Shown: positions 2-30,655 of the stretch, one piece after another
Position numbering within the stretch: position 1 is the stretch's first letter
How the letters are laid out: every line of letters begins with the position of its first letter
Source: Vicinamibacterales bacterium
GTDB lineage: Bacteria; Acidobacteriota; Vicinamibacteria; Vicinamibacterales; UBA8438
Assembly (NCBI GenBank): GCA_965207665.1
Contig: CBDBMV010000002.1
Coordinates: 1,945,704 to 2,009,703 of the forward strand
DNA: 64,000 bases
Direction of reading: 5' to 3'
Program-made: the position numbers and the translations under genes
The notes under the pieces: model-generated
Database searches by the model: none
The model's input: the letters and a program-made list of their open reading frames with translations, nothing else
What the model was told of the DNA's origin: nothing

Positions 2-256
2 TTGACGCTCGTGGAGCGCTTCACACGCTCGGCGCCCGACGTGCTGACGTACGAAGCGACCGTGACGGATCCCGATGTGTGGACAGGCTCCTGGACGTAC
101 TCCGTGCCGATGGCCAGGAGCGAGCACCCTCTGTATGAATACGCCTGCCACGAGGGAAACTACGGCCTCTACAACATCCTCGCCGGGGCGCAGACGAATC
201 CGGAAGCCAACGTGATGACGGCGGAAGAGGCCGCCGAGGAAGCCCAGAGGCGTTGA
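2..256 (+). CDS. C-terminal fragment (5' end off-window) of a secreted EYACHEGNY-motif family protein of unknown function
   Basis: The frame is open from the window edge. LVERFTR...DPDVWTGSWT...YEYACHEGNYGLYNILAGA aligns with the C-termini of the five full-length paralogs at 2956-3999, 3996-4964, 5103-6074, 6083-7105 and 17646-18614. Confidence 0.7.
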   Translation: MTLVERFTRSAPDVLTYEATVTDPDVWTGSWTYSVPMARSEHPLYEYACHEGNYGLYNILAGAQTNPEANVMTAEEAAEEAQRR

Positions 257-313
257 GCCGCTCCGAGCCAACGGGCGGCCTTCGACGGGAATCCGGTAAC
301 GGGGTCGACGTTG

Positions 314-874
314 CTAGCGGACCTCCAGTGACTCGACCTGCAGTCGTGGTGCGCCGTCCTGCGGCTCGATCCAGTGTCCGGTCACCTGCACCAGTTGGTC
401 GCCCGGCTCGACGGCCAGGGGCGTGAGGCCGTCCGCCGCGACGAGCTGAAGGGTGAAGTCGGGTGACAGGGCGAGGGCGGGCGTGCCGTTCACGTTGGTG
501 ACGCGCCCGACGGCGGTGACCACCACGCCGTCGGGAACGAAGCCGACATTGAGCACCGTGTCCTGCACTGCGGCCAGGTCAAGGTAGTGGCCGGGCTCGA
601 CGGCGATGGCGATCTGCCCGTCGGGGGGACTGACCTCGACGCCGGCGACGTAATCGAGGCGGCGCAGGCGCCGGTCGAGCCCGGCGGCGCACGAGGGACA
701 CGACAGCTCCACCTCGATGGTCACGCGCACCATCCCCGGCAGGTCCGGTGACTGCAGGAGCGCCGCGCCGGCGCCGGTCGACAGCGGACCGAACAGCAGT
801 GCGGCCAACCCGCAGCGCAACGCGCCGAGTGCGGCTCCGGCCAGTCGAGAACGGTTACGCCGCGCGGATTTCAT
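314..874 (-). CDS. Exported protein with a heavy-metal-associated (HMA)-like domain (CPSC motif)
   Basis: N-terminal Arg-rich n-region plus hydrophobic segment. VRVTIEVELSCPSCAAGLDRRLRRLDYVAGVEV...IAIAVEPG resembles the HMA beta-alpha-beta-beta-alpha-beta layout with CxxC. It lies 30 nt downstream of the PQQ gene on the same strand. Confidence 0.5.
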   Translation of the reverse strand: MKSARRNRSRLAGAALGALRCGLAALLFGPLSTGAGAALLQSPDLPGMVRVTIEVELSCPSCAAGLDRRLRRLDYVAGVEVSPPDGQIAIAVEPGHYLDLAAVQDTVLNVGFVPDGVVVTAVGRVTNVNGTPALALSPDFTLQLVAADGLTPLAVEPGDQLVQVTGHWIEPQDGAPRLQVESLEVR

Positions 875-904
875 TGCTTGCCGGCGTGATCCAGCCGCGG
901 ATGG

Positions 905-2959
905 TCAGTCCGGCAGCGCGAAGACGTACATCGCGTTGCCGCTGTCTGGGACGTAGATCTCGGGGCTGAGCGAGGCCGAGACGATTCGGAACACGCCCAT
1001 GCCGGTCGGGACGGCGACGTACTGCCTGCCGTCCACCGCGTAGGTAATCGGGTAGCCGTGCGCAGAGTGGCCGAGGCGCCGTTCCCAGAGGATTTCGCCT
1101 GTCTCCACATCGAAGGCCCGAAAGTAGCGGTCGAGGTCGCCGGCGAAGACCAGTCCTCCGGCCGTCGTCAGCGCCGAGGTCAGGAACATCGCCCGCTGCT
1201 GGTAGCTCCAGCGCTCCTCGAACGTCCGCACGTCGAACGCTGTTAGCCTGCCGATGTTCCCTTCAGACTCCGGCATCGGCAGCAGCAGGCCGATGCCGCC
1301 CTCGTTGCCGCTGCCTTCCACCAGCTCCACGGGCCGGCCGGTCATGGTCATGCACGACTGAACCAGCGGGAAGACGACCGCGCCGGTCTCCGGGCTGTAG
1401 GCCGAGGCCATCCAGTTGCGGCCGCCGAAGTACCCCGGACAGGCGGGCACCGGCTCGCCGATCTGCGCTTCGCGGATGTCGCGCCTGTAGGTGACGCGCC
1501 CGGTCTCGCGGTCGATCGACTCGAAGACGTCCTGGTAGACCATTTCCTTGATGGCGAGAAACCGCCCGTCGTTGCGGCGCAGCTTCCAGAGCAGCCCATC
1601 CTTGCCCGCCGTCAGCAGCACGGGCTCGCCGTCGATATCGAGCAGCATGCGTTCGTACACGCTGTCGAGGTCGAGCGTCTCTCCGGGCACGTGCTGGAAG
1701 AACCACTCCACCTGACCCGACCGCGGATTGAGCGCCAGCGTCGAGTTGGTGTAGAGCGCGTCGTGGGTCGTCGCCATGCCGCGGCTCGCTGCCACCCACG
1801 GCTTGGCCTGCGCGGTCCCGATGTAGAACAGGTCCAGGCCCGCGTCGTACGCGCCGGGAATCCACATGTCGGCCCCGCCCCGCAGGTGCGGTGGAATGTC
1901 GCCCCAACTGTTGTTGTTGGGATCGCCGGGTTGCGCGATGGTCGACGTGCGCCAGAGCTCCTCGCCGGTGTCGGGGTCGTGGCCGGTGATGAAGCAGCCC
2001 GCGTCGGTGAACTGCTCGCAGCCGTTGATGCCGCTGACCACGACGCCGTTGGCGATGACCGGCGCGGAGGTGTGCGTGAAGCCCTGCGTGTAGTCGGCCT
2101 TGGTCGTCTTCCATACCTCGTCGCCGGTGCGCATGTCGATGGCGACGATTGACGCATCGTAGGTTGCCAGGAAGATCTTGTCGCCGTAGAGCGCCAGACC
2201 ACGCGTTGCCCCGGTGCCCTTGAGCGCGTCGGGCGGATAGCCGTAGCGGTACTCCCAGATGAGATCGCCCGTGGCGGCGTCGATGGCCTGGACGACGTTG
2301 CCGGGGTTCGCCAGGAACATCACGCCGTCGTGCACCAGGGGCGAGGTCTGGTTCTGCCCCTCATGCATCGCGAGGACCCAGGCCAGCTCCAGCTCGCCCG
2401 CGTTGTCGCGGGTGATCTGATCCAGGGGGCTGTAGCCCTGGTTGTCCGGCGTGCGGCGCCAGCTCAGCCAGTCGGCCGCGGGCGGCCGGCGCAGCAACTC
2501 GTCGGTGACCGCCGCCAGCCCCGTGGCTCCGCTGTCGCGGTAGCGGGTCGTGCTCGTCTGGCGCGCCGCCGCCCCGCCCGGCGCAAAGCCCAACGCCGCC
2601 AACAGTGCCGGATCCATCTCGACGGAGCTCCGGATCACCGCGGCGATCTGCCGGTAAGTCTCCTCGCCGAGTTGCCCCTCCCTGCCGGGCGGCATCTCGG
2701 CCTGGAGGTAATCGACGAGCTCGGCGACGGAGCGCTCTCCCCACACGCTGTCGAAGGTCGTTCCGGTCAGCGCCGGACCGTGGGCGCTGCCTTCGAGCCG
2801 TTGCCCGTGGCACTCCGCGCATTGCGCCTGGTAGGCGGCCGCGCCGGGTCCCGCCGCGGCCCCCTGCGCCGCGGCGTGCGGCGCGAACGCCATGACCGCG
2901 GTCATGGCCAGAGCAACAATCGGCGGTAGCTTCCAATTGGTAGTCACGTCCTCAATCAC
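905..2959 (-). CDS. PQQ-dependent dehydrogenase (alcohol-dehydrogenase-like beta-propeller) with an N-terminal mono-haem cytochrome c domain
   Basis: CxxCH haem motif ([13 protein letters not shown]) follows a signal-like AFAPHAAAQ. Then come PQQ propeller strings: [72 protein letters not shown]. The GTG at 2959 overlaps the upstream stop (GTGA); alternative ATGs are at 2905/2893. The 891-aa track ORF extension upstream is Arg/Pro-rich junk overlapping the upstream gene. Confidence 0.8.
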
Positions 2960-3999
2960 CGTTGAGCCTCCAACAGCCGGGCTCCCATGAGAATGCTGGT
3001 CAGCGCGTAGTTGCCCTCGTGGCAGGCCGATTCGTAGATGCGGTTCTCCCTGTTGTCGAGCTCCGTCATCGGAATCTCGATGGTCCACGGGCGGGTGAAC
3101 ACCGTCTCGTCCTCGATGGTGGCCTGGTAGAGGAGCTCTCCCGGGCCGGTGCGGGTGAAGCGCTCGACGAGATGGAGGTTGTCGCGGGAACCCTCGTAGT
3201 TCGTCTTGTCGGAGAAGTTGGTGGTGTCGATGACGAGCGTGTCGCCTTCCCACCTCCCGCGCGCATCCCCCAGGTACTGGCGGATGCCGCCGGCGAGGTG
3301 CGGCCGGCCGTCCAGCGGGACATGCCGGTACGCGCCGCCGTTGTGCCCATGCTCGTAGTAGATGCTGACCAGGTCCGGCGACTGCACGATGCGGTGCAGG
3401 GTCGCGGACGAGCTGGCGGCCGCGAACCGCAGCGGAATGCTCGCGCCGAGGCAGCGGTCGTTCGGCCGGTCCTCCGGGCCGTCGCCGCCCCGATCGTTGT
3501 CCTCCGCGAGGTAGCGGCCGCGCTCGGTGAACGTGGAGACCATCTCGGCCGCGTGGCGCTCGCGGACCTCGGGAATCCACGGCACCTTGCCGTCCGGCGG
3601 GTCAATGATCTGCGACGTGCGGCCCGTGCTGATCACCTCGCGGCCGAAGCCGCTGAACGCGCTGTTGTAGGTGCCCACGTTGTCGCTCGACCCGCGTTCC
3701 CGCGTGCCTCCCACCGACGCGTCGACCCGGGTGAGCACCGCGGCCTCGAGCTCCGCCCTCTCCTCTTCCGTCACGAACTCGCGGCCCTCGAACTCGTCGG
3801 GCCGTTCGAGCGGCGTCAGGATGTAGCCGCTGGTCCAAATCCCCTGCAGGTCGGGTGCTCCCCAGGGCGTCCGCGCCGGGGCCCACTCGGCGTCAGCGGC
3901 TGTCTCGGCGGCGTCCTGCCCGAACGTCGGTTGCCACGCCAGTCCGGCAACCAGGAACACAACCAGTCCGAGCGCCAGTGCGAAGTGTCTGCCAGTCAT
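2956..3999 (-). CDS. Secreted EYACHEGNY-motif family protein (unknown function), paralog 1
   Basis: Signal peptide [22 protein letters not shown]. Family blocks: [84 protein letters not shown] overlap with the upstream paralog at 3996-3999. Confidence 0.8.
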
Positions 4000-4964
4000 C
4001 GGTCCTCCGCTTTCTCGAGGTTCCGCTGGATGCTGAGGATGTTGCTCAAGCCGTAGTTCGCTTCGTGGCAGGCATACTCGAAGATCTGCCAGTACGAGGG
4101 ATCACGCCTGCCGGTCATCATGAACGTCCAGGGGCGTGTCCAGGTGGCGGGATCGTCGATCGTGATGGCCACCTCGATGGTGTCGGCATCGACGCGCGTA
4201 TAGCGCTCGACCAGCCGCAGCGTCGCCCCGGCGCCCTTGTAGTTCGTGCGATCGCTGAAGTTGGCGACCTCGACCACGAGGGTGTCGCCGTCCCAGTGCC
4301 CGCGGGAGTCGCCGAACCACTGCCGGATCCCTTGCGTCAGCGGCGCGCGTCCGTCCAGCGGAATCAGGCGGTGCTCGTGCAGCCGCTCGTACAGGATTGC
4401 TACATGTCCAGGACTCTGGACGATCTGGAAGCCGTTGTTGTACGCGCTCGGGAACCAGGTGTGCGGCAGACCGCGCGTGATGCAGCGCTCGCCGAGGTTG
4501 AAATCCTCCGGGCCGTTCAGCGGGCTGCCGTCGAAGGCGCCGCCCACGAATCCCAGCACCGAGTCGGGGTCGATCTCGCGCGACTGCGCGCCCAGTGTTA
4601 GCGGCGGGATCCGGCCGTCGGGAGGGTCGATGACCAGAGATGTTCGGGCGGACGGCCGCTCGGCGTACTCGAACCAGTGCTTCGGCCCGGTTTCGTCGCG
4701 CGGCGGGCCGTCGTGCTTGTCGTCCCTGGCCAGCCGCTCCTCGACGTCGGCGCGTTCGGCGAGCTCTTCGGAAGTCAGCTCGGTCCGCTCGCCGAACTGC
4801 TCCGGCCGCTCCATCGGCACGCTGCGTTCGGCGTCCGTGGTGTAGATGCCCTGCAGGTCGGGGTCGCCCCAGGGTGTCCGGGGAACCTGCGCCGTAGCCT
4901 GCGAGTTCAGCATGCTGCCAGCCAGCACGCCCGCGCACACTGCTGCCCCGTATCGATATCCCAT
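3996..4964 (-). CDS. Secreted EYACHEGNY-motif family protein, paralog 2 (variant motif ACHEANY)
   Basis: Signal-like N-terminus ending ATAQ. Blocks: RTPWGDPDLQGIY, TSLVIDPPDGRIPP, GERCITRG, IPLDGRAP, GHWDGDTLVVEVANF, LVERYTR, WTRPWT, FEYACHEANYGL. Confidence 0.8.
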   Translation of the reverse strand: MGYRYGAAVCAGVLAGSMLNSQATAQVPRTPWGDPDLQGIYTTDAERSVPMERPEQFGERTELTSEELAERADVEERLARDDKHDGPPRDETGPKHWFEYAERPSARTSLVIDPPDGRIPPLTLGAQSREIDPDSVLGFVGGAFDGSPLNGPEDFNLGERCITRGLPHTWFPSAYNNGFQIVQSPGHVAILYERLHEHRLIPLDGRAPLTQGIRQWFGDSRGHWDGDTLVVEVANFSDRTNYKGAGATLRLVERYTRVDADTIEVAITIDDPATWTRPWTFMMTGRRDPSYWQIFEYACHEANYGLSNILSIQRNLEKAEDR

Positions 4965-4989
4965 TTGCGCGCAACGTTACCCACCGGGC

Positions 4990-5009
4990 AATTGGAGTGT
5001 CAACCAATT
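4990..5009. promoter_or_regulatory. Inverted repeat AATTGG-N8-CCAATT in the divergent intergenic region; candidate operator
   Basis: Read directly from the sequence between the divergent starts at 4964 (-) and 5103 (+). A 10-bp palindrome TTGCGCGCAA (4965-4974) also abuts the minus-strand start. No binding protein is known. Confidence 0.2.
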
Positions 5010-5102
5010 CCACCTCGAGAGCCTGCCGCGTGGAAGCGTTCCGGCTTTGCGGGATATGATGGCGGGGATTGGCGATTCAGGTTCTCTGGAGGAGGTTGTG
5101 AC

Positions 5103-6074
5103 ATGTGGGGTGTCAGGATGGCGGGTGCGCTTGTCGTGGCGGTCGTTGGACTGGTGGTTCTGTCCGGATTGGCGGAAGCGCAGGAGCCGCCGCGGACCGG
5201 GTGGGGCGAGCCGGATCTGCAGGGAGTCTGGGACTTCCGCACCCTCACGCCGCTCCAGCGGCCGGAGGATCTGGGCGACAAGGCGTTCCTGACGGCCGAA
5301 GAAGCGGCCCAGCGCGAGAAGGACGAGTTCGACCGGAACCTCCGTCTTTGGGAGCAGGACCGGCGCACTACCGTGGCCGGCGAGAACGTCGGCGGCTACA
5401 ACAACTTCTGGATGGACCGCGGCACCACGGTCATCGAGACGCTGCGCACCTCGCTCGTCATCGATCCGCCGAACGGCCGCATTCCCGAGCTCACGGAGGA
5501 GGGCCAGGCAAGGGCGCAGATTCCCCTGGGTTCGTTCAGGGTCGAGTTCCCGGAGACCTACACCGACCTGAGCACCTACGACCGCTGCATACTGGGCTTC
5601 AATGCCGGGCCTCCCATTACGCCGGCCGCCTACAACCAGAACGTGCAGATCTTCCAGACGCCGCGGCACCTGGTGTTGCTTACCGAGATGGTCCACACGG
5701 TGCGGGTCATCCCGCTGGACGGACAGCCGCATCTCGACGGCCGGGTGCAGCAGTGGTCCGGCGACTCCCGGGGGCGCTGGGAAGGTGACACGCTGGTGGT
5801 GGAGACCAGGAACTTCGCGGAGAAGCGCGCCTGGCGCGGGTCATCCGACAGGATGACGCTGGTCGAGCGTTTCCGCCGCCTGGACGAGGACACGCTCGAG
5901 TACGAATACACCGTGACCGATCCCGGCACCTGGCAGGCGCCCTGGTCGGTCAACCTGCCGATGGTCAGGAACGACCAGCCGGTATTCGAGTACGCGTGCC
6001 ACGAGGGCAACTACTCGATGGTCAACATCCTCGGCGGCGCGCGCGTCCTGGAGCAGCAGGCGGACGGCCGGTAG
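5103..6074 (+). CDS. Secreted EYACHEGNY-motif family protein, paralog 3
   Basis: ATG at 5103 is preceded by GGAGGAGG. Signal peptide ...VVLSGLAEAQ. Blocks: [82 protein letters not shown]. The track ORF start at 4677 adds 142 aa of antisense-like sequence and was rejected. Confidence 0.8.
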   Translation: MWGVRMAGALVVAVVGLVVLSGLAEAQEPPRTGWGEPDLQGVWDFRTLTPLQRPEDLGDKAFLTAEEAAQREKDEFDRNLRLWEQDRRTTVAGENVGGYNNFWMDRGTTVIETLRTSLVIDPPNGRIPELTEEGQARAQIPLGSFRVEFPETYTDLSTYDRCILGFNAGPPITPAAYNQNVQIFQTPRHLVLLTEMVHTVRVIPLDGQPHLDGRVQQWSGDSRGRWEGDTLVVETRNFAEKRAWRGSSDRMTLVERFRRLDEDTLEYEYTVTDPGTWQAPWSVNLPMVRNDQPVFEYACHEGNYSMVNILGGARVLEQQADGR

Positions 6075-6082
6075 GCGCCGGG

Positions 6083-7105
6083 CTACGGGGCCTCTGCTTC
6101 GCAGTCCCAACAGATGACGCCGGGCTCGGCGGACGGCTCCTTCGGCGTGCCGTCCTGGGCGCGCAAGCCGCTCAGGATGTTGACGATGGCGTAGTTGCCC
6201 TCGTGGCAGGCCACCTCATACATGGGGCCGGGGGTCGACCGCAGCGAGATGGCGGCTGTCCACGGGGCGGTCCACCGCGTGGGGTCGTCCACCGTGTACT
6301 CGTAGCGGATGAGGTCGCCGCTCTCGCGGGTGAAGCGCTCCACGAGCCGGCGGATGTTCGGGCCCGAGCCCACCTGCTGCAGCCGGTTCGAGAAGAGCGT
6401 CGTTTCCACGACCAGCGTGTCGCCCTCCCAGCGCGCACGCGCATCACCCGTCCGCTGCCGGATTGTCCCGTGCGGCCGATCGGAGATGGGGATGACACGC
6501 CAGGTGCGGAACGCCTCGGCGTAGATCACGAAGTAGTCGGGCGTCTGGAGCAACTGCACCAGGTTGTTGTAGGGCAGCGGTGAGATGGGAAGGCCGTGGA
6601 GCGCCAGGCAGCGGTCGCCCTGTCCCAGCTCGCGGTAGTCGTCCGCGGGCAGGATGGCGCCGAAGCCCTTGCGGCGCGCCTGGTCCCGCTTGCCGCCCTC
6701 GGTCATCTCCGGAAACCGGCCGTTCGGCGGATCGATGATCCTGGATGTCCGCCGGTCTGCAACGACCCTGGTTCCGAAGTCCAGACCCCACTGCCACGCG
6801 TGCCCGTTGGCGCCCGCTGCATCACCCGCCTCCGCGGGCCGCACGGGCGCGGCAAGGATGTTCTGCTCGCGGTCGACGGCGGCCTGCTCGAGTGACAGGG
6901 CCTGGTCCTCGGTGAGGTACTCCTGGTCCGCGAACTCCTCGGGCCGCTGCATCGGCGTGATGCTGCTGTAGTCCCACAGGCCGTCCAGCGCGGGCGTCCC
7001 CCAGGGTGTCCGGGGCGCCTCCTGCGCCGGCGCGGCCGACGCCGCCAGGAGCAGCACACCCGGGAATACGACAGCCCGCAACAGGTTCGTGGCTTGCAGG
7101 TGCAT
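6083..7105 (-). CDS. Secreted EYACHEGNY-motif family protein, paralog 4, with an extra C-terminal CWDC tail
   Basis: Signal peptide ...LLLAASAAPAQ. Blocks: [74 protein letters not shown]. Unique tail ...EPGVICWDCEAEAP. Starts 3 nt after the DUF1552 stop. Confidence 0.8.
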   Translation of the reverse strand: MHLQATNLLRAVVFPGVLLLAASAAPAQEAPRTPWGTPALDGLWDYSSITPMQRPEEFADQEYLTEDQALSLEQAAVDREQNILAAPVRPAEAGDAAGANGHAWQWGLDFGTRVVADRRTSRIIDPPNGRFPEMTEGGKRDQARRKGFGAILPADDYRELGQGDRCLALHGLPISPLPYNNLVQLLQTPDYFVIYAEAFRTWRVIPISDRPHGTIRQRTGDARARWEGDTLVVETTLFSNRLQQVGSGPNIRRLVERFTRESGDLIRYEYTVDDPTRWTAPWTAAISLRSTPGPMYEVACHEGNYAIVNILSGLRAQDGTPKEPSAEPGVICWDCEAEAP

Positions 7106-7108
7106 CTA

Positions 7109-8377
7109 TCAGGCCCAGGTCAGGGTCCCGGTGCTCTGGCCGAACGCGTCGGTCTCCACGCCCATGTTCTGCAGCAGCGTTACGTACAGGTTGCAGAGCG
7201 GCGCGTTGTGCTCGCCGTCGTGCACGACGTGCTGTCCGTGGGAGAAGCCGCCGCCCGCGACCAGAATGGGCAGATCAACCGGCGTGTGCGCGTTCGCGTT
7301 GCCGAGATTGCTGCCGAACAGGACCGTCGTCTGGTCGATGAGCGGGCCGTTGGCGTCGCTGCGCTCGGTCAGGTCGGTCATCAGGCTGTTGAAGGCCTGG
7401 ACGATCTCCACCTCGACCTTCTTGAGCTGCGCGATCTTGGCCTCGTCCTGCCCGTGGTGCGACAGGTTGTGCTGATCGGTCGTCACGCCCGGAACCTGCG
7501 GCACTACGCCGTGGTCCTGGATCATGAGGCTGATGACCCGCGACGAATCGGTCTCCAGGATCAGCGGCATCAGGCTGAACATCGCCTTGATGCGGCCGAT
7601 GAGGTCCGCGGGGTTGGGGATGTCCTCCGGCGGTTCCGCGTCGACGGCCGGCTTCGGCCTCTGCTGCCAGGCCTTGACCTCGCCGAGTTCCTGCTCGGCC
7701 GTGCGCACCGCCTCGAAGTACGCGTCGAGCTTCTGCTGATCGATCGCGCTGACGCGCCGGCGCAGCACCGCCGTCTGCGACTTGAGCCGGTCGAGGATGC
7801 TGCCGCCGTCGTTGAGGCTCTGCGCCTCGCGCTCGACCTCCTCGGGCGTGCCCTGCAGGAACAGGTTCCTGAACAGGCGGGCCGGGCTGGCCTCGGCCGG
7901 CACCATCGCGCCGCTCGTGGTGAACGACTGGCTCTGCGCCGTGGCCGTTGCCATGACGATGGAGGGGAAGCGGGTGGCATATCCGAAGTGATTGGCGGCC
8001 ACCTGGTCGAGCGAGATCGAGTTGCGGAACCCGTCGAGGCCGGGCCGGCGGGCGGCCGTCAGCCAAGTGATCTCGGAGTTGTGCGGCTGCCGGCCGGTCT
8101 GCTCCTCGTGCGAGAACCCCGTGAACAGCGTGTACCGCGAGCGGTGGCCGTCGATGAGATTCAGGTACTCGCTCGCCTCGTAGCCGGCGCCGGCCGTCTT
8201 CGGGAACCACGAGTCCGAGTAGAGCCCGAGGGTGCTGCAGATCGTCACCAGCCGCTTCGGCGACGCCGCCGCCGCGCGCGCCAGCGCCGGGTGCATCGAC
8301 TCGAGCATCGGCAGCGCCAGCGCGACGCCTGAAGCGCGCAGGAACGTGCGGCGGCCGACGGTTCCATTGATGGCCAT
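7109..8377 (-). CDS. DUF1552 family protein (Tat-like signal)
   Basis: MAINGTVGRRTFLRASGVALALPMLESM is the typical DUF1552 N-terminus. It lies 2 nt downstream of a DUF1592-type gene, the classical pairing. The 1199-aa track ORF is an out-of-frame read-through extension and was rejected. Confidence 0.8.
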   Translation of the reverse strand: MAINGTVGRRTFLRASGVALALPMLESMHPALARAAAASPKRLVTICSTLGLYSDSWFPKTAGAGYEASEYLNLIDGHRSRYTLFTGFSHEEQTGRQPHNSEITWLTAARRPGLDGFRNSISLDQVAANHFGYATRFPSIVMATATAQSQSFTTSGAMVPAEASPARLFRNLFLQGTPEEVEREAQSLNDGGSILDRLKSQTAVLRRRVSAIDQQKLDAYFEAVRTAEQELGEVKAWQQRPKPAVDAEPPEDIPNPADLIGRIKAMFSLMPLILETDSSRVISLMIQDHGVVPQVPGVTTDQHNLSHHGQDEAKIAQLKKVEVEIVQAFNSLMTDLTERSDANGPLIDQTTVLFGSNLGNANAHTPVDLPILVAGGGFSHGQHVVHDGEHNAPLCNLYVTLLQNMGVETDAFGQSTGTLTWA

Positions 8378-8379
8378 GC

Positions 8380-10827
8380 CTACTGTCTCCTGAACAGGTC
8401 GTTGCGGACGACCTGGTGAATCATCGCGCGCACCGGATGCCCCGCCGCGCGGCCGTGGTCGACGATCTGCTCGACGTTGTCGCGGTCGGCGAACTCGATC
8501 TCGGCGCCGGTCGCAATCACCAGCAGTTGCGACGCCAGATTGCGCGCCACCTGATCCACCTCCGCGTCGAGCAGCAGCCGCTTGTACTCGTGGATGCCAG
8601 TAAAGGCGTCGCCCTCCGGTGTCACGCCGCTCGCGTCGACCGGGGGACCCTCCCCGAACGGCTCGAAATAGGTGCCCCCGCCGGGCGCGGGGACCTCGCG
8701 CGGGGACGTGCGGTAGCGCGTGCGGAACCCGCCGATCGGGTCGAACGACTCGAGTGCGAATCCGGGCGGGTCGATCCGGCGGTGGCAGCTCGCGCAGACC
8801 GGGGCGTTGCGGTGCGCGTCGAGCTGCTCGCGGATGGTGGTCGTGCCCCGCGTATCCGGCTCGATGCCGCCGACGGACTCCGGCGGGGGCGGCGCCGGCC
8901 GGCCCAACAGGTTCGCCAGCACGAAGTTGCCGCGCGGAATCGGCGAGGTCGTCGTCCCGTTGGCGGTGATCTTGTGGATGCTTGCCTGCGCCAGCAGCCC
9001 CCCGCGCGGGCTGTCGGGCGGCAACTGCACCTTGCGCATGTGCTGGCCCTTGATGCCCTCGATCCCGTAGTGGTCGGCCAGGCGGCGGTTCACGAACGTG
9101 AAGTCGGCGTCGACCAGGCGCCCCGCGCCCAGGTCCCCGGCGATCAGCTCGGCCAGGAACAGCTCGGTCTCGCGCACCATGGCCTGCCCCAGCCGGTCGT
9201 CGTACTCCGGATAGAGGCCCGGGTCCGGCGAGGTGGCCTTGATCTCGTACAGCCGGAACGCCTGGCCGGCGAAGTCCTTGACGAAGCGCCCGGTCCGCGG
9301 GTCGTCCAGCATCCGGTCGACCTGCCCGGCCAGGGCCGCGGGGTCGGCCAGCCGGCCCGCGCGCGCGGCCTCGAACAGCTCGGCGTCGGGCATGCTCCGC
9401 CACAGGAAATAGGACAGCCGCGTCGCCAGGCTGAACTCGTCCAGCGTGCCGGGAGCGCCCGTGTGGAAGAGGAATGACGGCGCGCTCAGAATGGCCCGGA
9501 GCGGCACGCGGACCGCGTCGATGAAGGGCCGTCCCGCGTCCAGCAGCGGACGCGCGAGGCTGGCGTAGGCCTCCAGCTCGTCGTCGCCCACCGGCCGGCG
9601 GAACGCCCGCGGCGCGAACGCGGCGACGATGTCCGCCACGTGCTCGTAGGGGTCCTTCGTGAGTTGAATGTAGCCGTCCGCGTCGAAGTCGATCCCGACC
9701 AGCAGTTGCCGGGTGCTCGGCGGCGGCCACGTGTCGAACAGCGGGCCTTCGATGGTCATCGACTTGAACGCGATGCCCTCGCTCGGCCACTCGTCGATGA
9801 CGTGCGCGTAGCCCTGCGACGGGTCGGTCAGCTTCTCGTAGGGATTGGCGTCCGGCGGCATGTCGAGATCGGCCGGCGACACGCCGATGAGATGGCCCGG
9901 GCGCATGAACGGCGTCAATTCGACCGTCCGCGGTCCCTCCAGGTCGAACGAGCCGATCAGGTCGTCGAGTGACGCGGCCACGCCCGACAGGCTCCCGCGG
10001 TACACCATGAGCGTGACCGGCGTGTCCGCCTGGTACGGGTAGGCGTCGATCGTCACGCGGTAGCGGCCGGGATAGGGCACGCCGAAGCCTTCCGAGCTGC
10101 TGTGGAAGGTGTAGGTGGAGGTGAAATCGAAGAACTGCACGTAGGCGTCGTCTAGCTGCTTGACGCTCCCCAGCCCCAGCTGCACGGCCCTGCGCATGAA
10201 GTAGAGGTACTGCGACTTGGCGTAATCGATGAAGTAGGGCTCGGCGGGCGGCGGCGGCCCGGTGACGATGGCCGCATCGAGCGCCCGGTCGGCCGCCTCC
10301 AGGTAGCTGCGCACGTGCAGCGGCGACATGCTCTGGTTCGACGCGACCGTATCGATCCCGCCGGAGTCGGCTTCCGCCGGCAGCGTCAGGCTGAGTTCCG
10401 TCGCGATGTACTCGTCGATCCCCAGGAGGTCCTGCAGGGTGTATCCGTACTCGAGCCTGGTGAGCCGGCGGAGCGGGGTGCGCTGCCCGCCGCGGGCCGC
10501 GAGGTTGGCGTCCACCAGGGCCCGCTTCAGCGAGCCCAGCGCCGTCTCTACCAGCGCCGCATCCGGTCTCCGGGCGGCCGGCGGCGGCATCTCGCCCGCT
10601 TCGACCCGCTCGTAAATCTGCTGCCACTTGCGGAATTTCTCGTGGTCGGTGAGATCGAACCCGAGCTCGTCGAGGTTCAGGGGAGTCACCGTCCGGGGTC
10701 CGTGGCACTGCAGGCAGGAGGCTTCCAGCAACGGCGTCACGTCCGCCTTGAACGACTGGGCCGACGCCGCGCCCGCCCCGAGTCCGGATGCCAGAACGAC
10801 GACAAGCACCCCCGGCAGTCTATGCAT
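8380..10827 (-). CDS. DUF1592/DUF1588/DUF1587/DUF1585/DUF1595-type protein with an N-terminal cytochrome-c-like CxxCH motif
   Basis: Signal peptide, then FKADVTPLLEASCLQCHGP. A second CxxCH lies near the C-terminus (VCASCHRRIDPPGFALESFD). Size of 815 aa and the partnership with DUF1552 fit the family. Confidence 0.8.
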   Translation of the reverse strand: MHRLPGVLVVVLASGLGAGAASAQSFKADVTPLLEASCLQCHGPRTVTPLNLDELGFDLTDHEKFRKWQQIYERVEAGEMPPPAARRPDAALVETALGSLKRALVDANLAARGGQRTPLRRLTRLEYGYTLQDLLGIDEYIATELSLTLPAEADSGGIDTVASNQSMSPLHVRSYLEAADRALDAAIVTGPPPPAEPYFIDYAKSQYLYFMRRAVQLGLGSVKQLDDAYVQFFDFTSTYTFHSSSEGFGVPYPGRYRVTIDAYPYQADTPVTLMVYRGSLSGVAASLDDLIGSFDLEGPRTVELTPFMRPGHLIGVSPADLDMPPDANPYEKLTDPSQGYAHVIDEWPSEGIAFKSMTIEGPLFDTWPPPSTRQLLVGIDFDADGYIQLTKDPYEHVADIVAAFAPRAFRRPVGDDELEAYASLARPLLDAGRPFIDAVRVPLRAILSAPSFLFHTGAPGTLDEFSLATRLSYFLWRSMPDAELFEAARAGRLADPAALAGQVDRMLDDPRTGRFVKDFAGQAFRLYEIKATSPDPGLYPEYDDRLGQAMVRETELFLAELIAGDLGAGRLVDADFTFVNRRLADHYGIEGIKGQHMRKVQLPPDSPRGGLLAQASIHKITANGTTTSPIPRGNFVLANLLGRPAPPPPESVGGIEPDTRGTTTIREQLDAHRNAPVCASCHRRIDPPGFALESFDPIGGFRTRYRTSPREVPAPGGGTYFEPFGEGPPVDASGVTPEGDAFTGIHEYKRLLLDAEVDQVARNLASQLLVIATGAEIEFADRDNVEQIVDHGRAAGHPVRAMIHQVVRNDLFRRQ

Positions 10828-12831: not shown

Positions 12832-13754
12832 AGCGTAGCGTGGGTTTGGCGTCCCTGATGGTGCTCGGTCTGACCCTGGCGGCGGGGACGCACGGCGCGC
12901 AGGAGCCCCGCCCGCCCATCGAAGTCCATCAGATCACCGATGCTCTCTACATGCTGGGGTCGGGAACCACGACCGGCGGCAACACGGCGGCCTTCATCAC
13001 GGACGCCGGCGTCGTGCTCGTCGACACCAAGCTGGAGGGGTACGGGCCGGACATCCTCGACCACGTGCGGCGTCTCACCGACAAGCCGGTGACGACGATC
13101 ATCAACACGCACGTCCACTTCGACCACAGCGGCTCGAACACCGAGTTCCCCGACACGGTGCACTTCGTGGCGCACGAGAACATCAGGCGCCACATGGCGC
13201 GCAGCGACTGCCAGCCGATACCCACCAACTGCGACGACTTCCAGGGCGAGAACGCGAAGTACCTGCCGTCGACGACGTTCTCGGACCGGCTCACGCTGTT
13301 CACCGGCGGCCCGGACCAGATCGACCTCTACTACTTCGGCCGCGGCCACACCGACGGCGACACGTTCGTCGTGTTCAAGGCCGCGCGCACGATGCACACG
13401 GGCGACATGTTCCAGGGCAAGCTGCTGCCCTTCATTGACGCCGACAACGGCAATGGCGGGAGCGCCATCGAGTTCGGCCGCACGTTGACGAGGGCGATCG
13501 CGGACATCTCCGACGTCGACACCATAATCACCGGGCACTGGGAGACGCCCCTCGCCTGGCGCGACCTGGTCGACTACCGGGACTTCTACGCCGACCTGGT
13601 TCGCCAGACTCGGGAGGGCATCGACGCGGGGCGCAGCGCCGAGGAGACCATCGCGGCTTACACCAAGCCGGCGAGGTTCAGCGACTACAACGCGCCTGCG
13701 GAGGGCACGTTCAGCGTGGCGAGCATCGTCAGCTACATCTACGAAGGACGTTAG
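12828..13754 (+). CDS. Secreted MBL-fold metallo-hydrolase (paralog A)
   Basis: Signal peptide ...AAGTHGAQ. HxHxDH motif INTHVHFDHSGSN, later GHTDGDT and ITGHWE. About 60% alike by eye to 20807-21754. Confidence 0.8.
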   Translation: MKRSVGLASLMVLGLTLAAGTHGAQEPRPPIEVHQITDALYMLGSGTTTGGNTAAFITDAGVVLVDTKLEGYGPDILDHVRRLTDKPVTTIINTHVHFDHSGSNTEFPDTVHFVAHENIRRHMARSDCQPIPTNCDDFQGENAKYLPSTTFSDRLTLFTGGPDQIDLYYFGRGHTDGDTFVVFKAARTMHTGDMFQGKLLPFIDADNGNGGSAIEFGRTLTRAIADISDVDTIITGHWETPLAWRDLVDYRDFYADLVRQTREGIDAGRSAEETIAAYTKPARFSDYNAPAEGTFSVASIVSYIYEGR

Positions 13755-14469: not shown

Positions 14470-17454
14470 CTAGAAGGATACCTGCGTGCCGAACGACAGC
14501 ACCCGGCCCCGGTTGATCTGGATCGGCCGGTAGAAGTCGTCGTTGATCGTCCCGCCACCTCCGAAGAACCGGTTCCGCGTGAAGACGGTCAGGGTGTTGA
14601 ACAGGTTGCTGGCGTCCATGTACGCCCGAATCCGCACGCCGCCGGGCAGCGTCATCAGTTTCTGGAATCGGATGTCGAGCTGCGTGGTGAGATCCTCGAA
14701 CTGCGTGCCCGGCTCGATCAGCGAGACATCGACGTTCTGCAATACTGGCTGGAAGGTGGCATCCAGCGGGGACACGAGTGGCCGGCCCAGGTCGGTTGCG
14801 TCCACCTGGTAGGTGGCCAGGATCTCGTTGCCCGCGAACACCTGGAACAGACCCGAGATCATCGTGTCGAACGGCAGCGGGATGCCCCCCGAGAACTTGA
14901 AGTTGTTGCGGAACCCGCGCGAGTTGTCGCAGAAGTCGAGTCCGAAAACCGGAGCTGCGCCATCGTCGTTCGCCGGGTTGCCGTTGGGACTGTCCAGCCG
15001 CGGGTCCGTGCAGAAGTTGCCCGAGGCCTGGCCACCCGTCCAGCTCGCCTGCGCGAAGCCATCGTTCCACAGCCGGCCGTCGACGATCACCTCGAACCCG
15101 TTCCAGCTCCGCGAATCGTCGGGCGCCTGGGTAAACAAGATGTCGCCCGTCGAGTACCCGAAGTCAGGGGTGGCGTACTCGTACACCGTGAGCTGCTGGT
15201 TGCCGCCGCCCGGCAGCCGCGAATCGGCCGGCCCGGTGAAGGGGATTGCGGCCCAGTTGCTGGCGTTGACCGCGGTGTTGTCCGCCCAGCGGAAATTGCC
15301 GTACTCCCGCCGGATCCACTTGGCGGTGACCGACCAACTGTTGCCCAGCTCGTGCTCGATGCCGGCGTTGTACTCCCAGTTGGCCTCTCGCAGCGCGTCG
15401 GGGTCGAGCCGGTTCGCCGTGGTCGGCGTACCGAAGTTCGGGTTGAACGACGAGCCGATCTCGGCGAACTGGGGCGTCCCGTCGGGGTTGATCGGCGTGC
15501 CGTCACCGTTGGCGTCGAACCACGTGCGATAGTCGAAGAGAAAGCCGAACGGACTGAAGACGTTGGTGATGCCGAGCGCCTCGTTCGCCACGTAGCGTCC
15601 CGCGAACGCCTTGAGCGCCGTCCGGCCTGTACCGAACAGGTCGTAGGCCACGCCGAAGCGTCCGCTCCAGTCCGACCAGTTCGGGAGGTCGTTGATCGGG
15701 TCGGCCACGACCTCCGGCGAGAAGTAGCCGGCAGGCCGGGTGCCCCCGGCCAGGGAGCCGTTGAACCAGTCGTAGCGCACGCCCAGGTTGACCGTGAAGC
15801 GGTCCACCGTCCAGGCGTCCTGCGCGTAGATGCCGCACTCGCAGTTCTGCTTGCGCAGGTCCTCCGCGTCGCCGTTGCCCATGACCAGCAGGAAGAGCGG
15901 GAAGCCGTTGAAGGTGTACGCCGAGAAGATGTCGCCGTTGTTCTTCCAGCGGCCGTACTGAATGTTGTTGCCGTACTGGAAGCCGGCCTTGAAGTTGTGC
16001 GACCCGGTGACGTACGAGACCGACGCGTTTGCCATGCGCCGGTGGTCCTCGGTGAAGAAGTCCTGGAGGATTCTGGTGCCCGACTGGAGGCCCGTGGCAA
16101 CGTCGTTGAAAGCCACCCGCCCGATGCCGTTTTCGTCGAAATCACGGAACGCGAGGTCCAGCCGCTGGTACGAGAAGGTCGCCTCGATCAGCACCCGGTC
16201 GGTGGGCGTCGACGTCCAGCGCGTCGTGCTCATGTAGTTCGGGTCAGAGGTGCCGTTGAAAAGCGCCTCGGATGCAACGCGGCCGAAGCCGGTGCCGACC
16301 ACGCGGCCGAAGTCGTTCTGCTGCGCCGTAAACGCCGAGGTGACCTTGTTCGCCTGGTTGACCTGGTAGGTGATCCGGATGTTCTGCACGCTGCTGGTGC
16401 CCTCGCCGAACGCGCGCAGATCGTCGCCGAGGCCTTGCGGCGTGGACGGCTCATCCGGATCGAAGAAGATGTCCGTCCGGTAGGTCTTGTTGCGGTTCCT
16501 CACGTACGAGCCGAAGAACCACAGCTTGTCCTCCTTGAGCGGGCCGCCGAACGCCGGGTTCAGGCTGTAGTTCCACGCCACCGGCGCAAAGGCGAATCCG
16601 GCCGCCTCCAGCTCGGGCGTCAGGTTGCTGGAGGCGAAGTTTTCGCGTCCGCCGTCGAGGAAGAGCTCCCCGGAGAAGGTGTTGGCGCCGGCCTTGGGGA
16701 TCATGTTGGTGCGCACGCCGCTCTGGGGATACTCGGCCGAGAGCGCGCCCGTGTCGAACACCATCTCCGCGATCGACGCCTCGTCGGTGACGAGCCCGAT
16801 ACCGCCCACGGACTGGCTGCGGCCGCCGAGCTGCGTGCCGGTCTCGACGCCGTCGATATGGCCCTGGCTGTCCGCGCCTGTCGAGCCGTGCACGGTCGGC
16901 CCACGCTCTGCGCTGGAGCCGGCCGTCGCGAGGAAATTGTTCCGAGCGTCGACACCCGGCGCGTACTGCATCCCGGAGATGATGCTCTGCGCCGCCGGCA
17001 GCGCGTTGACCTCGTCGGTGACCAGCACCGTCTGCTCACGGGTGTTGACCACGTCGACCAGCGGCGCCACGCCGGACACCGTCACCGTCTCTGCGATCTG
17101 GCCCACCGTCAGCTCGGCGTCGACGTTCGCCGTGAACGAGCCCTCGAGCACGATGCCTTCGCGCACCACGGTGCGGAAGCCCTGCAGGCTGAAGGACACC
17201 GAGTAGGTTCCGGGCGGCAGGTTGATGAAGTGGTAGAGGCCGGCGCCGTCGGTGGCGACGGTGCGGCTCTGCTCGATCAACTGCGGGCTTGCCGCGACGA
17301 CCGTGACGCCCGGCAGGACCAACCCGGTTTCATCCTCGACCGTGCCGGCGATGCCTGCACGATCCTGCGCGTGGACCGTGCCTGGCGCGACCAGCGCCCC
17401 CGCCAACAACAACAACGCCGCAAGCGCCGTCAGCTTACCGTTCCGCAATTCCAT
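14470..17454 (-). CDS. TonB-dependent receptor with an N-terminal carboxypeptidase-regulatory-like domain (TBDR-1)
   Basis: Signal peptide ...VAPGTVHAQ. IAGTVEDETGLVLPGVTVVA...TDGAGLYHFINLPPGTYSVSFSLQGF (CarboxypepD_reg). About 990 aa. C-terminal ...LSFGTQVSF has a terminal aromatic residue. Paralog of 60562-63681. Confidence 0.85.
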   Translation of the reverse strand: MELRNGKLTALAALLLLAGALVAPGTVHAQDRAGIAGTVEDETGLVLPGVTVVAASPQLIEQSRTVATDGAGLYHFINLPPGTYSVSFSLQGFRTVVREGIVLEGSFTANVDAELTVGQIAETVTVSGVAPLVDVVNTREQTVLVTDEVNALPAAQSIISGMQYAPGVDARNNFLATAGSSAERGPTVHGSTGADSQGHIDGVETGTQLGGRSQSVGGIGLVTDEASIAEMVFDTGALSAEYPQSGVRTNMIPKAGANTFSGELFLDGGRENFASSNLTPELEAAGFAFAPVAWNYSLNPAFGGPLKEDKLWFFGSYVRNRNKTYRTDIFFDPDEPSTPQGLGDDLRAFGEGTSSVQNIRITYQVNQANKVTSAFTAQQNDFGRVVGTGFGRVASEALFNGTSDPNYMSTTRWTSTPTDRVLIEATFSYQRLDLAFRDFDENGIGRVAFNDVATGLQSGTRILQDFFTEDHRRMANASVSYVTGSHNFKAGFQYGNNIQYGRWKNNGDIFSAYTFNGFPLFLLVMGNGDAEDLRKQNCECGIYAQDAWTVDRFTVNLGVRYDWFNGSLAGGTRPAGYFSPEVVADPINDLPNWSDWSGRFGVAYDLFGTGRTALKAFAGRYVANEALGITNVFSPFGFLFDYRTWFDANGDGTPINPDGTPQFAEIGSSFNPNFGTPTTANRLDPDALREANWEYNAGIEHELGNSWSVTAKWIRREYGNFRWADNTAVNASNWAAIPFTGPADSRLPGGGNQQLTVYEYATPDFGYSTGDILFTQAPDDSRSWNGFEVIVDGRLWNDGFAQASWTGGQASGNFCTDPRLDSPNGNPANDDGAAPVFGLDFCDNSRGFRNNFKFSGGIPLPFDTMISGLFQVFAGNEILATYQVDATDLGRPLVSPLDATFQPVLQNVDVSLIEPGTQFEDLTTQLDIRFQKLMTLPGGVRIRAYMDASNLFNTLTVFTRNRFFGGGGTINDDFYRPIQINRGRVLSFGTQVSF

Positions 17455-17645: not shown

Positions 17646-18614
17646 ATGGCCATCCGTCGCCGCGTAGCTGTACTGATAATGATCGGCCTGCTGGCGCCGG
17701 CCGGCACAGCAGCCCAGCTACCCGGCACGCAGCCACCTCGAACGTCCTGGGGAGACCCCGATCTGGGCGGGGTCTGGGACTTTCGCACCATCACGCCGCT
17801 GGAACGGCCGGAAGAGCTGGGCGACCAGGCGTTCCTGACGAAGGAAGAGGTCGCCGCGGCGGAGCAGAAGGCCGTCGACCGCGACCGCTACATGAACGAG
17901 AAGCCGGCGGAGCGCGCCACGAAGGGCGGCAACGTGGGCGCCTACAACTGGTTCTGGATGGACTTCGGGACCGCGGCCGTGGAGTCCGGGCGCACGTCGC
18001 TGATCGTCGATCCGCCCAACGGTCGCCGGCCGCCGATGACCCCCGAGGCCGCGGAAGCGTGGAGCAAGCGCCCGCCATGGGGCCAGGAGCCGCCGCCCGA
18101 CAGCTACACGGACATGAGCGTCTTCGACCGCTGCGTGGGCTCGATGGCGCTGCCGATCTACCCGACGGCGTACAACAACTACGTGCAGGTGTTTCAGACG
18201 CCCGACCACGTGGCGATGTTCGTCGAGATGATGGGCTCGGTCCGCATCATCCCGCTCGACGGGCGCCCGCATGCGAACGTCCCGCAGGCGCTGGGCAACT
18301 CGCGGGGCCGCTGGGAGGGCGACACGCTGGTTGTGGAGACGGAGAACTTCAGCCGCGGGATGGCGCTGATCGGCGCCAGCCGCAACGCGCACAGCCTGGT
18401 GGAGCGCTTCACGCGGGTCGGCCCCGGCAGCATCGAATACGAGTTCACGGTCGTCGATCCGACGGTGTGGACGAAGCCCTGGACCGCCGTGCAGACACTG
18501 CGAACCGCCGCGGGAGCCGTCTACGAGTACGCCTGCCACGAGGGGAACTACGCCCTGCCGAACATCCTGGCGGGCGCCCGCGCCGCCGAGGCGCGGCCCG
18601 CGGCCGGACGCTAG
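17646..18614 (+). CDS. Secreted EYACHEGNY-motif family protein, paralog 5
   Basis: ATG at 17646 lies 5 nt after GGAGG (the track ORF starts at GTG 17613). Signal peptide ...LLAPAGTAAQ. Blocks: [81 protein letters not shown]. The PQQ gene starts 7 nt downstream. Confidence 0.8.
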   Translation: MAIRRRVAVLIMIGLLAPAGTAAQLPGTQPPRTSWGDPDLGGVWDFRTITPLERPEELGDQAFLTKEEVAAAEQKAVDRDRYMNEKPAERATKGGNVGAYNWFWMDFGTAAVESGRTSLIVDPPNGRRPPMTPEAAEAWSKRPPWGQEPPPDSYTDMSVFDRCVGSMALPIYPTAYNNYVQVFQTPDHVAMFVEMMGSVRIIPLDGRPHANVPQALGNSRGRWEGDTLVVETENFSRGMALIGASRNAHSLVERFTRVGPGSIEYEFTVVDPTVWTKPWTAVQTLRTAAGAVYEYACHEGNYALPNILAGARAAEARPAAGR

Positions 18615-18620
18615 ATCCCC

Positions 18621-20806: not shown

Positions 20807-21754
20807 CTAGCGCCCCTCGAGGAGTAGCGGGACGATCTGCTGGAGCCGGCCGGGGGGCGCCGCGAATTCACCGTAACGGTCGGGCAGCGTGTAGCTCCCG
20901 ACGATCTCCGCCGCGCTGCGGCCGGCCGCTCGTCCCTCGTGTACCTGCCGCACCATGTCGTTGTAGAAGCCGGCGTTGTCGACGAGGTCCTGCCAGATGT
21001 GCGGATCGTCGGCGTGGCCGGTGATGACGGTATCCACGTCGGGGATGCCGTCCGCCGCCCCCTGCAGCGTGGAGCCGAACTCGGTGGCGCTGCCGTTCGA
21101 GTTGGCGGCGTCTATGAACGGCAGACCCTTGCGGGCCATCATGTCGCCCGTATGGACCGTCCGCGCATCCTTGAACACCACCCACGTGTCACCGTCGGTG
21201 TGGCCGCGGCCGAAGTAGTACAGGTCGATCTGGTCGGCACCGCTGAACAGCGTATGTTGCGTCGCGAAGGTCGTATCGGGCAGGAACCTGGTGTTCTCGC
21301 CCTGAAACTGCTCGCAGTTCTTGATGGAGCCGCCCTCGAACCCCGCGCCGTCGTCGCAGTCGGAGCTGGCCATGTGCGCGGCGGTGTTCTCGTGCGTGAC
21401 GATGTTGACGGTGTCAGGGAACTCGGGGTTCGAGCCGCTGTGGTCCCAGTGGGTGTGGGTGTTGATGATGGTGGTCACCGGCATGTCGGTGATTTCCCGG
21501 ACGCTCGCGAGAATGTCCGCGCCGTAGCCCTTGATCTTGGTGTCCACCAGCACGACGCCGTCGGACGTCAGGAAGACCGCGGTGTTGCCGCCGGTGCGCA
21601 TGCCCTGCTCGGCCGGGTCCGACGTGAGCATGTACAGGTTCTCCGCCAGCTCCAGCGGGCGGATGGGGTGGCGCTCCGCCTGTGCCTGGTTGGACGCCGC
21701 CGCCAGCGTCACACCGATCACCGTCACCGCCGCCAGACACGCAACTCGCCTCAT
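20807..21754 (-). CDS. Secreted MBL-fold metallo-hydrolase (paralog B)
   Basis: Signal peptide ...AAASNQAQA. INTHTHWDHSGSN (HxHxDH), GHTDGDT, ITGHAD. Confidence 0.8.
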   Translation of the reverse strand: MRRVACLAAVTVIGVTLAAASNQAQAERHPIRPLELAENLYMLTSDPAEQGMRTGGNTAVFLTSDGVVLVDTKIKGYGADILASVREITDMPVTTIINTHTHWDHSGSNPEFPDTVNIVTHENTAAHMASSDCDDGAGFEGGSIKNCEQFQGENTRFLPDTTFATQHTLFSGADQIDLYYFGRGHTDGDTWVVFKDARTVHTGDMMARKGLPFIDAANSNGSATEFGSTLQGAADGIPDVDTVITGHADDPHIWQDLVDNAGFYNDMVRQVHEGRAAGRSAAEIVGSYTLPDRYGEFAAPPGRLQQIVPLLLEGR

Positions 21755-22210: not shown

Positions 22211-22222
22211 CGCTCCCCGTCG

Positions 22223-30637: not shown

Positions 30638-30655
30638 GGCGGAGAAGACAAGACC

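Follow-up and report, generated by a model that had tools for sequence, protein, structure and literature searches.

The 64,000-nucleotide (nt) stretch of a Vicinamibacterales genome analysed here (contig CBDBMV010000002.1, positions 1,945,704 to 2,009,703; "the window", G+C 66-71%) carries six paralogs of an apparently secreted protein family that matches no named family. We find that the family is large, that its core is predicted to be a calycin barrel, and that it lives among genes for periplasmic oxidation without being tied to any one of their products; its sole tight partner, found in other genomes, is DUF6152. The explanation that we tentatively prefer, while granting it slightly less than an even chance, is that these proteins are non-catalytic, cofactor-less periplasmic binding and hand-over proteins of the calycin class, amplified in islands of oxidation genes and elsewhere coupled to a partner with an oligonucleotide/oligosaccharide-binding (OB) fold and a His-His N-terminus.

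Six paralogs in one window

Translation of the open reading frames (ORFs) returns five complete family members and one copy cut by the window edge, all at the coordinates given in an earlier note on this DNA that had been made from the letters alone (the sequence-only reading):

2..256, plus strand: C-terminal 84 amino acids (aa) of a paralog cut by the window edge, with LVERFTR and, further on, EYACHEGNY; scores 98 bits with the family hidden Markov model (HMM)
2956..3999, minus strand: paralog of 347 aa; overlaps at its start with the stop of the upstream paralog (ATGA) and at its stop with the GTG start of the gene for a cytochrome c-pyrroloquinoline quinone (PQQ) dehydrogenase (GTGA)
3996..4964, minus strand: paralog of 322 aa; first gene of an operon-like string of two family genes, the PQQ dehydrogenase gene and a gene for a CPSC-motif protein
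5103..6074, plus strand: paralog of 323 aa; convergent with the 6083-7105 copy
6083..7105, minus strand: paralog of 340 aa; 3 nt downstream of a DUF1552 gene
17646..18614, plus strand: paralog of 322 aa; 6 nt upstream of a PQQ dehydrogenase gene and divergent from the outer-membrane barrel gene at 14470-17406; the copy that was modelled

The paralogous set is real. Pairwise identities to the 17646 copy are 40-53% over ~320 aa, family-HMM scores (360-524 bits) are far beyond chance, and every motif block listed in the sequence-only reading is found in the paralog alignment. The ORF at 2-256 had been described as a fragment; it is indeed the shorter ORF, but the cause is the window edge, and the copy is a truncated paralog, not a pseudogene. 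The N-terminus of each of the five complete copies consists of a short basic stretch and a hydrophobic run that finishes in an A-x-A-Q-type end; P-R-T-x-W-G-x-P-D-L-x-G-x-W follows directly. These signal-like N-termini read as Sec signal peptides, in keeping with the shared Sec signal that had been proposed.

The gene junctions, too, stand largely as described. The overlaps upstream of the cytochrome c-PQQ dehydrogenase gene (ATGA, 3999-3996; GTGA, 2959-2956) can be read directly in the sequence, and a gap of 3 nt (7106-7108) separates the DUF1552 gene from the 6083-7105 paralog, with the neighbours confirmed by Pfam. A copy does lie just upstream of a further PQQ dehydrogenase gene, although the spacing (18615-18620) measures 6 nt where 7 nt had been given.

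A large family without annotation

That no named family matches, as had been claimed, is borne out by the libraries: Pfam and NCBIfam scans of the five complete paralogs gave zero matches, and searches of PDB sequences, both with single sequences in phmmer and with a profile, found no match to the family. A word-indexed search returned at least 8,000 candidates, all of them significant and all without Pfam domains, and an exhaustive profile search collected 25,983 representative clusters (50% identity) at E ≤ 1e-3, including 13,792 at ≤ 1e-10 and 2,690 at ≤ 1e-30. For the ten clusters that were looked up, the only name given by the sources is "hypothetical protein".

Most family clusters come from Vicinamibacterales, Bryobacterales and Gammaproteobacteria. 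Among the GTDB species representatives, at least 594 loci match; the best 80 of these are mostly from Vicinamibacterales, with Bryobacterales, other Acidobacteriota and several Gammaproteobacteria making up the remainder, and distant homologs reside on sphingomonad megaplasmids. Some 26,000 sequence clusters stand without annotation, their sources being the abundant Acidobacteriota of soils and the Gammaproteobacteria of soils, sediments and the sea.

A predicted calycin core

Structure prediction and a Foldseek search, both of which the sequence-only reading had suggested, point to a calycin-type barrel core. The AlphaFold2 model of the 17646 protein, based on a 40-sequence alignment, has a mean predicted local distance difference test score (pLDDT) of 78 and a predicted template modelling score (pTM) of 0.73. 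It comprises a short G-x-W strand (residues 42-45), a long helix (66-85), eight strands (179-287) and a C-terminal helix (304-320), for a modelled total of 9-10 strands, in line with the 8-10 of a closed antiparallel calycin barrel. Every top Foldseek match in the PDB is a calycin barrel: SAHS 5xn9 (E 1e-4), CRABP/FABP, nitrobindin, lipocalins and streptavidin. On this model the core is a calycin (lipocalin/FABP-like) barrel, the remainder of the protein having no solved counterpart. The window copies represent a "long form", in which a ~100-aa insertion with the long helix separates the first strand from the rest of the barrel; "short" forms (~270-300 aa) do without this insertion.

Like the known calycins (lipocalins, FABP/CRABP, SAHS, nitrobindin, avidins), the family would thus combine an antiparallel barrel core, a G-x-W strand, a conserved Arg and a C-terminal helix with export from the cytoplasm. 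Unlike them, the window proteins are about twice the size, carry the ~100-aa insertion after the first strand, are far more conserved in sequence and match no Pfam lipocalin profile. No profile-level match to a curated lipocalin-type family was obtained from Pfam or NCBIfam, and hhalign against a Lipocalin_5 domain gave a probability of 0.5%, on which Lipocalin_5 homology was rejected.

Some family members do have an extra C-terminal Lipocalin_5 or DUF3471 domain. DUF3471 was considered as the identity of the barrel and rejected: the weak match, in one divergent member, falls in such an extra C-terminal domain outside the family region. Two rare fusions of the long form were also seen, one (P0139, 714 aa) with an N-terminal domain that has squalene-cyclase-like repeats and a CVSCH haem motif, the other (P0175, 440 aa) with a C-terminal Lipocalin_5 domain.

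As far as the libraries and papers examined show, the family itself, its long-form architecture, its size, the islands in which it sits and the way it is paired with or fused to DUF6152 are undescribed, while the fold class is known. Assigning the family to that class would help annotation and supply a concrete idea for experiments to address.

Conserved residues and what they imply

Conservation was assessed in 448 aligned hit stretches (405 sequences for G42 and W44) and in a 21-sequence superfamily alignment that adds divergent short, sphingomonad and fused forms. Each of Cys163 and Cys297 occurs in over 99% of the 448 stretches; where a sequence covers the two columns, they are found together in 390 cases out of 392, and every divergent branch has them. 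His298, which follows the second Cys, is present in 94% of long-form sequences (the C-H dipeptide in 94-100%) but gives way to L, S, K, A or V in the divergent short, sphingomonad and fused forms and is therefore not family-invariant. The sequence-only reading had taken both Cys residues and the adjacent His to be invariant and had proposed a disulfide or a metal/cofactor site; the Cys pair lives up to this description and the His does not. Because both Cys are always kept and divergent branches have other residues in place of the His next to the second one, we take the pair to form a disulfide that would tie the DRC loop to the ACHE segment. A Cys/His metal or cofactor site, on the other hand, is weakened, and probably wrong, since the wider family does not keep the His. 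A Cys pair that tethers the C-terminal segment occurs in many lipocalins.

One particular version of a cofactor site deserves separate mention. The family might be a redox carrier that holds haem covalently through Cys297-His298 (a single-Cys X-X-X-C-H arrangement), possibly with the help of Cys163, and receives electrons from PQQ dehydrogenases. The prevalence of the C-H dipeptide in the long form, its position near the C-terminus after a beta-rich domain and the redox neighbourhood are what one would expect under this scenario. However, CXXCH is absent from the family (in E-Y-A-C-H the position of the first Cys is occupied by an invariant Glu), short and fused forms keep both Cys but replace the His, Foldseek finds no cytochrome fold, and no dedicated haem lyase was seen nearby. 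A haem-carrying role is barely credible in this light, and a haem c-like C-H site was rejected on the lost His and the absent CXXCH.

Across the 21 superfamily sequences, G42, C163, G217, W223, L228, R254 and C297 are invariant and P38, W44 (at least 90%), P129, R200, T227, V229, E253, D271, P278 and E294 nearly so. In the larger set G42 reaches 99% and W44 90% (otherwise Y or F), so that the G-x-W strand (structurally conserved region 1, SCR1) is present by this measure as well. R254 is 98% conserved; together with the nearly invariant R200, it is a candidate for the Arg/Lys of SCR3, which in calycins packs from a late strand over the motif Trp. The superfamily signature reads as a calycin-like scaffold made of a G-x-W strand, an Arg and the Cys pair, and the C-H-E-G-N-Y motif is, judging by the alignment, a speciality of the long form.

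Several observations weigh against a simple calycin-type binder. The template modelling (TM) score of the Foldseek matches, normalized to the target, is only ~0.5, and under half of the query is covered. In addition, the long form has a whole set of near-invariant polar residues, namely R54, R116, S118, D122, R162, Q184, E194, R200, E253, R254, D271, E294, E299, N301 and R312. Polar conservation of this extent is unusually high for a lipocalin-like binder and looks more like that of an enzyme or cofactor site. Might the family then be a calycin-fold enzyme (an isomerase, lyase or hydrolase-type activity) that acts on the products or substrates of neighbouring oxidoreductases? Strong polar conservation on several strands and in the E-x-x-C-H-E-G-N-Y segment, as well as an overall conservation above that of typical lipocalins, with 2,690 representative clusters below 1e-30, would all be in keeping with catalysis. 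Yet no enzyme family is similar by sequence or fold, His298, Glu299 and Asn301 are lost in divergent branches that retain the fold and the Cys pair, and the neighbouring enzymes are heterogeneous. On balance we consider an enzymatic role unlikely.

Gene neighbourhoods: PQQ dehydrogenases are frequent but not specifically adjacent

The genes around the paralogs in the window are as follows:

314..874, minus strand: exported 186-aa protein with a CPSC motif, no Pfam match; last gene of the string of two family genes and the cytochrome c/PQQ gene
905..2959, minus strand: fusion of a cytochrome c domain and an eight-bladed PQQ dehydrogenase whose active-site motif is D-L-D (Pfam)
7109..8377, minus strand: DUF1552 (HXXSHH) protein (Pfam)
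8380..10827, minus strand: PSCyt1/PSD2-5/PSCyt3 (DUF1592 and related) protein (Pfam)
14470..17406, minus strand: CarboxypepD_reg domain and outer-membrane protein (OMP) beta-barrel, TonB-dependent-receptor-like; domains inferred from the syntenic genes in loci L081 and L092, not from the window ORF
18621..20735, plus strand: PQQ dehydrogenase with a W-D-Y-D motif (D-x-D) (Pfam)

The CPSC-motif protein resembles a heavy-metal-associated domain, going by a reading of its sequence. Genes of the metallo-beta-lactamase fold flank the family and PQQ genes (12858-13754, plus strand; 20807-21727, minus strand), and this fold is also recurrent near homologs in Acidobacteriota and Gammaproteobacteria.

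To place these neighbours in a wider context we used the best 80 of the at least 594 GTDB loci, taken with 10 kb on either side and containing 144 family genes. Genes were called with a codon-usage model, a caller that fails on four low-GC loci, and labelled by HMMs built from the window proteins; genes were considered adjacent when co-directional and separated by less than 200 nt. The sequence-only reading was right to place the family among periplasmic redox genes. PQQ dehydrogenases are the commonest non-self family and account for ~7% of genes within 10 kb of family members, a share that would lie far above any plausible genome average, and PSCyt3/DUF1592-DUF1552 pairs repeatedly stand beside close relatives. 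De novo clustering of loci that contain the family recovers PQQ dehydrogenases in 32 of 77, DUF1592 in 14, DUF1552 in 11 and ankyrin proteins in 10.

The sequence-only reading had gone further and seen in the family a new accessory or partner component of periplasmic dehydrogenase systems. In its strict form, as a dedicated partner subunit of PQQ dehydrogenases, the protein would dock onto the enzyme and be needed for its maturation, for substrate delivery or for electron transfer. The frequencies just given are compatible with such a role, as are the translational coupling or 6-nt spacing between family and PQQ genes in the window and the presence of PQQ dehydrogenases near the gammaproteobacterial fusions described below. 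The pairing is moreover kept among the closest relatives of the 17646 copy: at 99% (L081) and 89% (L092) identity, the order of outer-membrane barrel gene, divergent family gene and PQQ dehydrogenase gene is the same. At 60-72% identity, however, the neighbours are others. Four of five such relatives lie immediately beside DUF1592 and/or DUF1552 and the fifth has DUF1592 ~5 kb off; two have an ankyrin protein; none has a PQQ gene next to it, and one has such a gene in its flank of 5-6 kb.

The wider sample tells the same story. A PQQ gene is co-directional and adjacent for 5 of the 144 family genes, the sphingomonad homolog loci examined have no PQQ neighbour, and ~25 of the 80 loci contain no PQQ, no DUF1552/DUF1592 and no second family copy within 10 kb. 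Another family member is the co-directional neighbour in 48 adjacencies (tandem paralogy), and Pfam assigns the 86 distinct non-family co-directional neighbours to DUF6152 (12), PQQ dehydrogenase (5), ankyrin repeats (4) and cytochrome c (4), the rest being heterogeneous. Genes at most 2.5 kb and at least 5 kb from a family gene, 120 of each, were also compared:

PQQ dehydrogenase: 8 near, 9 far
DUF1552: 2 near, 2 far
PSD domains: 2 near, 2-3 far
DUF6152: 5 near, 0 far

Because near and far counts are about the same for PQQ dehydrogenases, DUF1552 and PSD domains, and the density of PQQ dehydrogenases stays at 15-59 per Mb at all distances, PQQ dehydrogenases and PSCyt/DUF1552 pairs are over-represented island-wide and not specifically adjacent to the family gene. 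Linkage to PQQ genes is not conserved as adjacency, and the notion of a dedicated partner subunit, contradicted by these counts, now appears improbable. The comparison with established PQQ-dehydrogenase accessories (cytochrome cL/XoxG, MxaJ/XoxJ, lanmodulin) is instructive here: these are likewise periplasmic and sometimes encoded beside the dehydrogenase, but our family shares no homology with them (Pfam, PDB) and has neither a haem motif nor a conserved PQQ adjacency.

What the family does mark are islands packed with D-x-D PQQ dehydrogenases and with equally mysterious PSCyt3/DUF1552 pairs, so that finding its ligand could open up the function of the islands. In the literature searched on DUF6152, DUF6644 and the DUF1552-DUF1592 combination we found no functional data, and one paper states the functions of PSCyt genes as unknown. 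Outer-membrane receptor genes adjoin family genes both in the lineage of the window and in sphingomonads.

DUF6152 as a partner and as a fusion

DUF6152 is the one tight partner. It lies immediately downstream of the family gene in ~15% of loci, and its density is 98 per Mb within 500 nt of a family gene versus ~10 per Mb beyond. DUF6152 proteins have ~110 mature residues, with a predicted mature start of H-H-(A/S)-F and a second motif, N-P-H-x-W-(I/L)-H. The downstream arrangement is found in Acidobacteriota, Gammaproteobacteria and sphingomonads, in one case with a 4-nt overlap, and the sphingomonad pairs adjoin TonB-dependent receptors and DUF6644 proteins. The window itself is different: none of its proteins matches DUF6152 (PF19649), and no DUF6152 ORF is present anywhere in its 64 kb.

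In three ORFs from the retrieved loci, DUF6152 and the family core form a single protein. Searching the database with one of these fusions yielded 4,198 hits at E ≤ 1e-5; each of the best 120 clusters is a full-length protein of ~372 aa, annotated as DUF6152 only. Aligning the window family with the fusions in hhalign gives a probability of 97.5% (E 6e-12) over 162 columns that include both Cys, and we conclude from this profile match that the unannotated C-terminal 230 aa of the ~372-aa DUF6152 proteins are homologous to the window family. The AlphaFold2 model of a fusion (pLDDT 73.5) is in agreement, with Foldseek matching the N-terminal domain to OB folds (SSB, PriB and the LysRS N-domain; target TM 0.55-0.63) and the C-terminal part, once again, to FABP (FABP1). 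The ~372-aa proteins, of which PF19649 covers the N-terminal domain only, therefore resemble the window proteins in their C-terminal module, in both Cys and in their genomic neighbours; they differ in having neither the long-form insertion nor C-H-E-G-N-Y, while the window proteins have no DUF6152 domain. For annotation this means that the unannotated two-thirds of the "DUF6152 family" fusions can be labelled as a window-family module.

The gammaproteobacterial fusion loci contain cytochrome c-PQQ dehydrogenases, GSDH, metallo-beta-lactamase-fold proteins, glyoxalase and PSCyt3. Because these are the same neighbour families as those in window-type loci, one set of gene families travels together across phyla.

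Variants of the pairing were seen in two other groups. On sphingomonad plasmids (L082 6557-7845, L083 5820-7456, L090 7728-10256), short-form genes pair with DUF6152, also beside TetR/MarR regulators; in Sphingobium, the partners of the short form are unannotated genes that correspond in size, and the pairs belong to a cluster for sulfonate and taurine utilisation. In Bryobacterales/Terriglobia (L037, L046, L053, L066, L080) the recurrent order is short form, long form and then DUF6152 (three of five loci), which suggests that short-form and long-form proteins may work together.

What might be bound and handed over?

Four PQQ dehydrogenases are encoded within 28 kb of the window, one with DLD (905-2959) and three with DYD (18621-20735, 22211-24337, 26884-28962). 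Alignment places the D-x-D motif in all four and in 35 of 39 PQQ dehydrogenases from related loci; the corresponding position is D-F-T in the Ca-dependent type II enzyme 1kv9. A 2026 preprint describes the second Asp of D-x-D as the hallmark of lanthanide binding and proposes that periplasmic lanthanide cargo proteins beside TonB-dependent transporters are yet to be found and characterised (bioRxiv 10.64898/2026.07.10.737718). Since D-x-D enzymes are abundant and such cargo proteins are expected by this preprint, it is conceivable that the family carries a metal or cofactor.

Imagine a periplasmic cargo protein that takes up a lanthanide, Ca, Cu, Zn or PQQ and conveys it, alone or with DUF6152, from an outer-membrane receptor to periplasmic enzymes. 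Apart from the D-x-D motif, the predicted OB fold and N-terminal His-His of DUF6152, the CPSC-motif protein that closes the window operon, and the many invariant carboxylates of the long form, along with its His and Asn, could be accommodated in such a scheme. There are precedents for both halves of it: CusF is a periplasmic OB-fold metallochaperone for Cu, and ZinT/YodA is a periplasmic Zn-binding protein with a calycin fold. By analogy, a calycin paired with a His-His OB fold would recall these periplasmic metal carriers, but there is no sequence match to either, and neither is among the top 50 Foldseek matches. Nor do the residues that are invariant across the superfamily (G, W, C, C, L, R) make up a set of metal ligands; they appear structural, and the His is lost in fused and short forms. 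Pfam finds no ZinT, lanmodulin-like or EF-hand match in the window paralogs, and it may just be that D-x-D enzymes are standard in these phyla. A role in carrying a metal or cofactor is, in our view, doubtful. More doubtful still is a full cargo system in which the long form alone, or the family together with DUF6152, would supply lanthanides, PQQ or another metal cofactor from outer-membrane barrels to D-x-D quinoproteins and PSCyt proteins. If it were true, the family would be a candidate for a periplasmic step in the maturation of lanthanide enzymes in Acidobacteriota and in marine and soil Gammaproteobacteria.

We therefore return to binding and hand-over by a calycin-class protein as the reading that we prefer, keeping in mind the unusual polar conservation of the long form. 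A Sec-exported, periplasmic calycin-type barrel would bind a small molecule and might then pass it to other periplasmic proteins or to transporters. The family has multiplied, with its copies diverging, within islands of genes for periplasmic oxidation, which encode D-x-D PQQ dehydrogenases, PSCyt3/DUF1592-DUF1552 pairs, metallo-beta-lactamase-fold proteins and TonB-dependent-type barrels. Elsewhere this core may work with DUF6152, with its predicted OB fold and predicted His-His N-terminus, encoded downstream or fused. Should the family turn out to be a plain carrier of hydrophobic ligands, the gain would mainly be one of better annotation.

Further features of the window

Two paralogous beta-propeller proteins of 536 aa each, similar to NHL/SGL/Vgb-lyase, are followed by a thiamine-pyrophosphate enzyme (29030-32329 and 32391-34364, plus strand); six-bladed propellers are also recurrent beside family genes in other loci. 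Further along, the minus strand encodes nine tandem DUF3604 paralogs of ~610-650 aa each (37960-58212; mutual phmmer scores of 674-1550 bits), a second large paralog array within the same window, which is broken by genes for a HupE/UreJ-type membrane protein (47856-48863) and for a protein with a PPIase domain (48880-49755).

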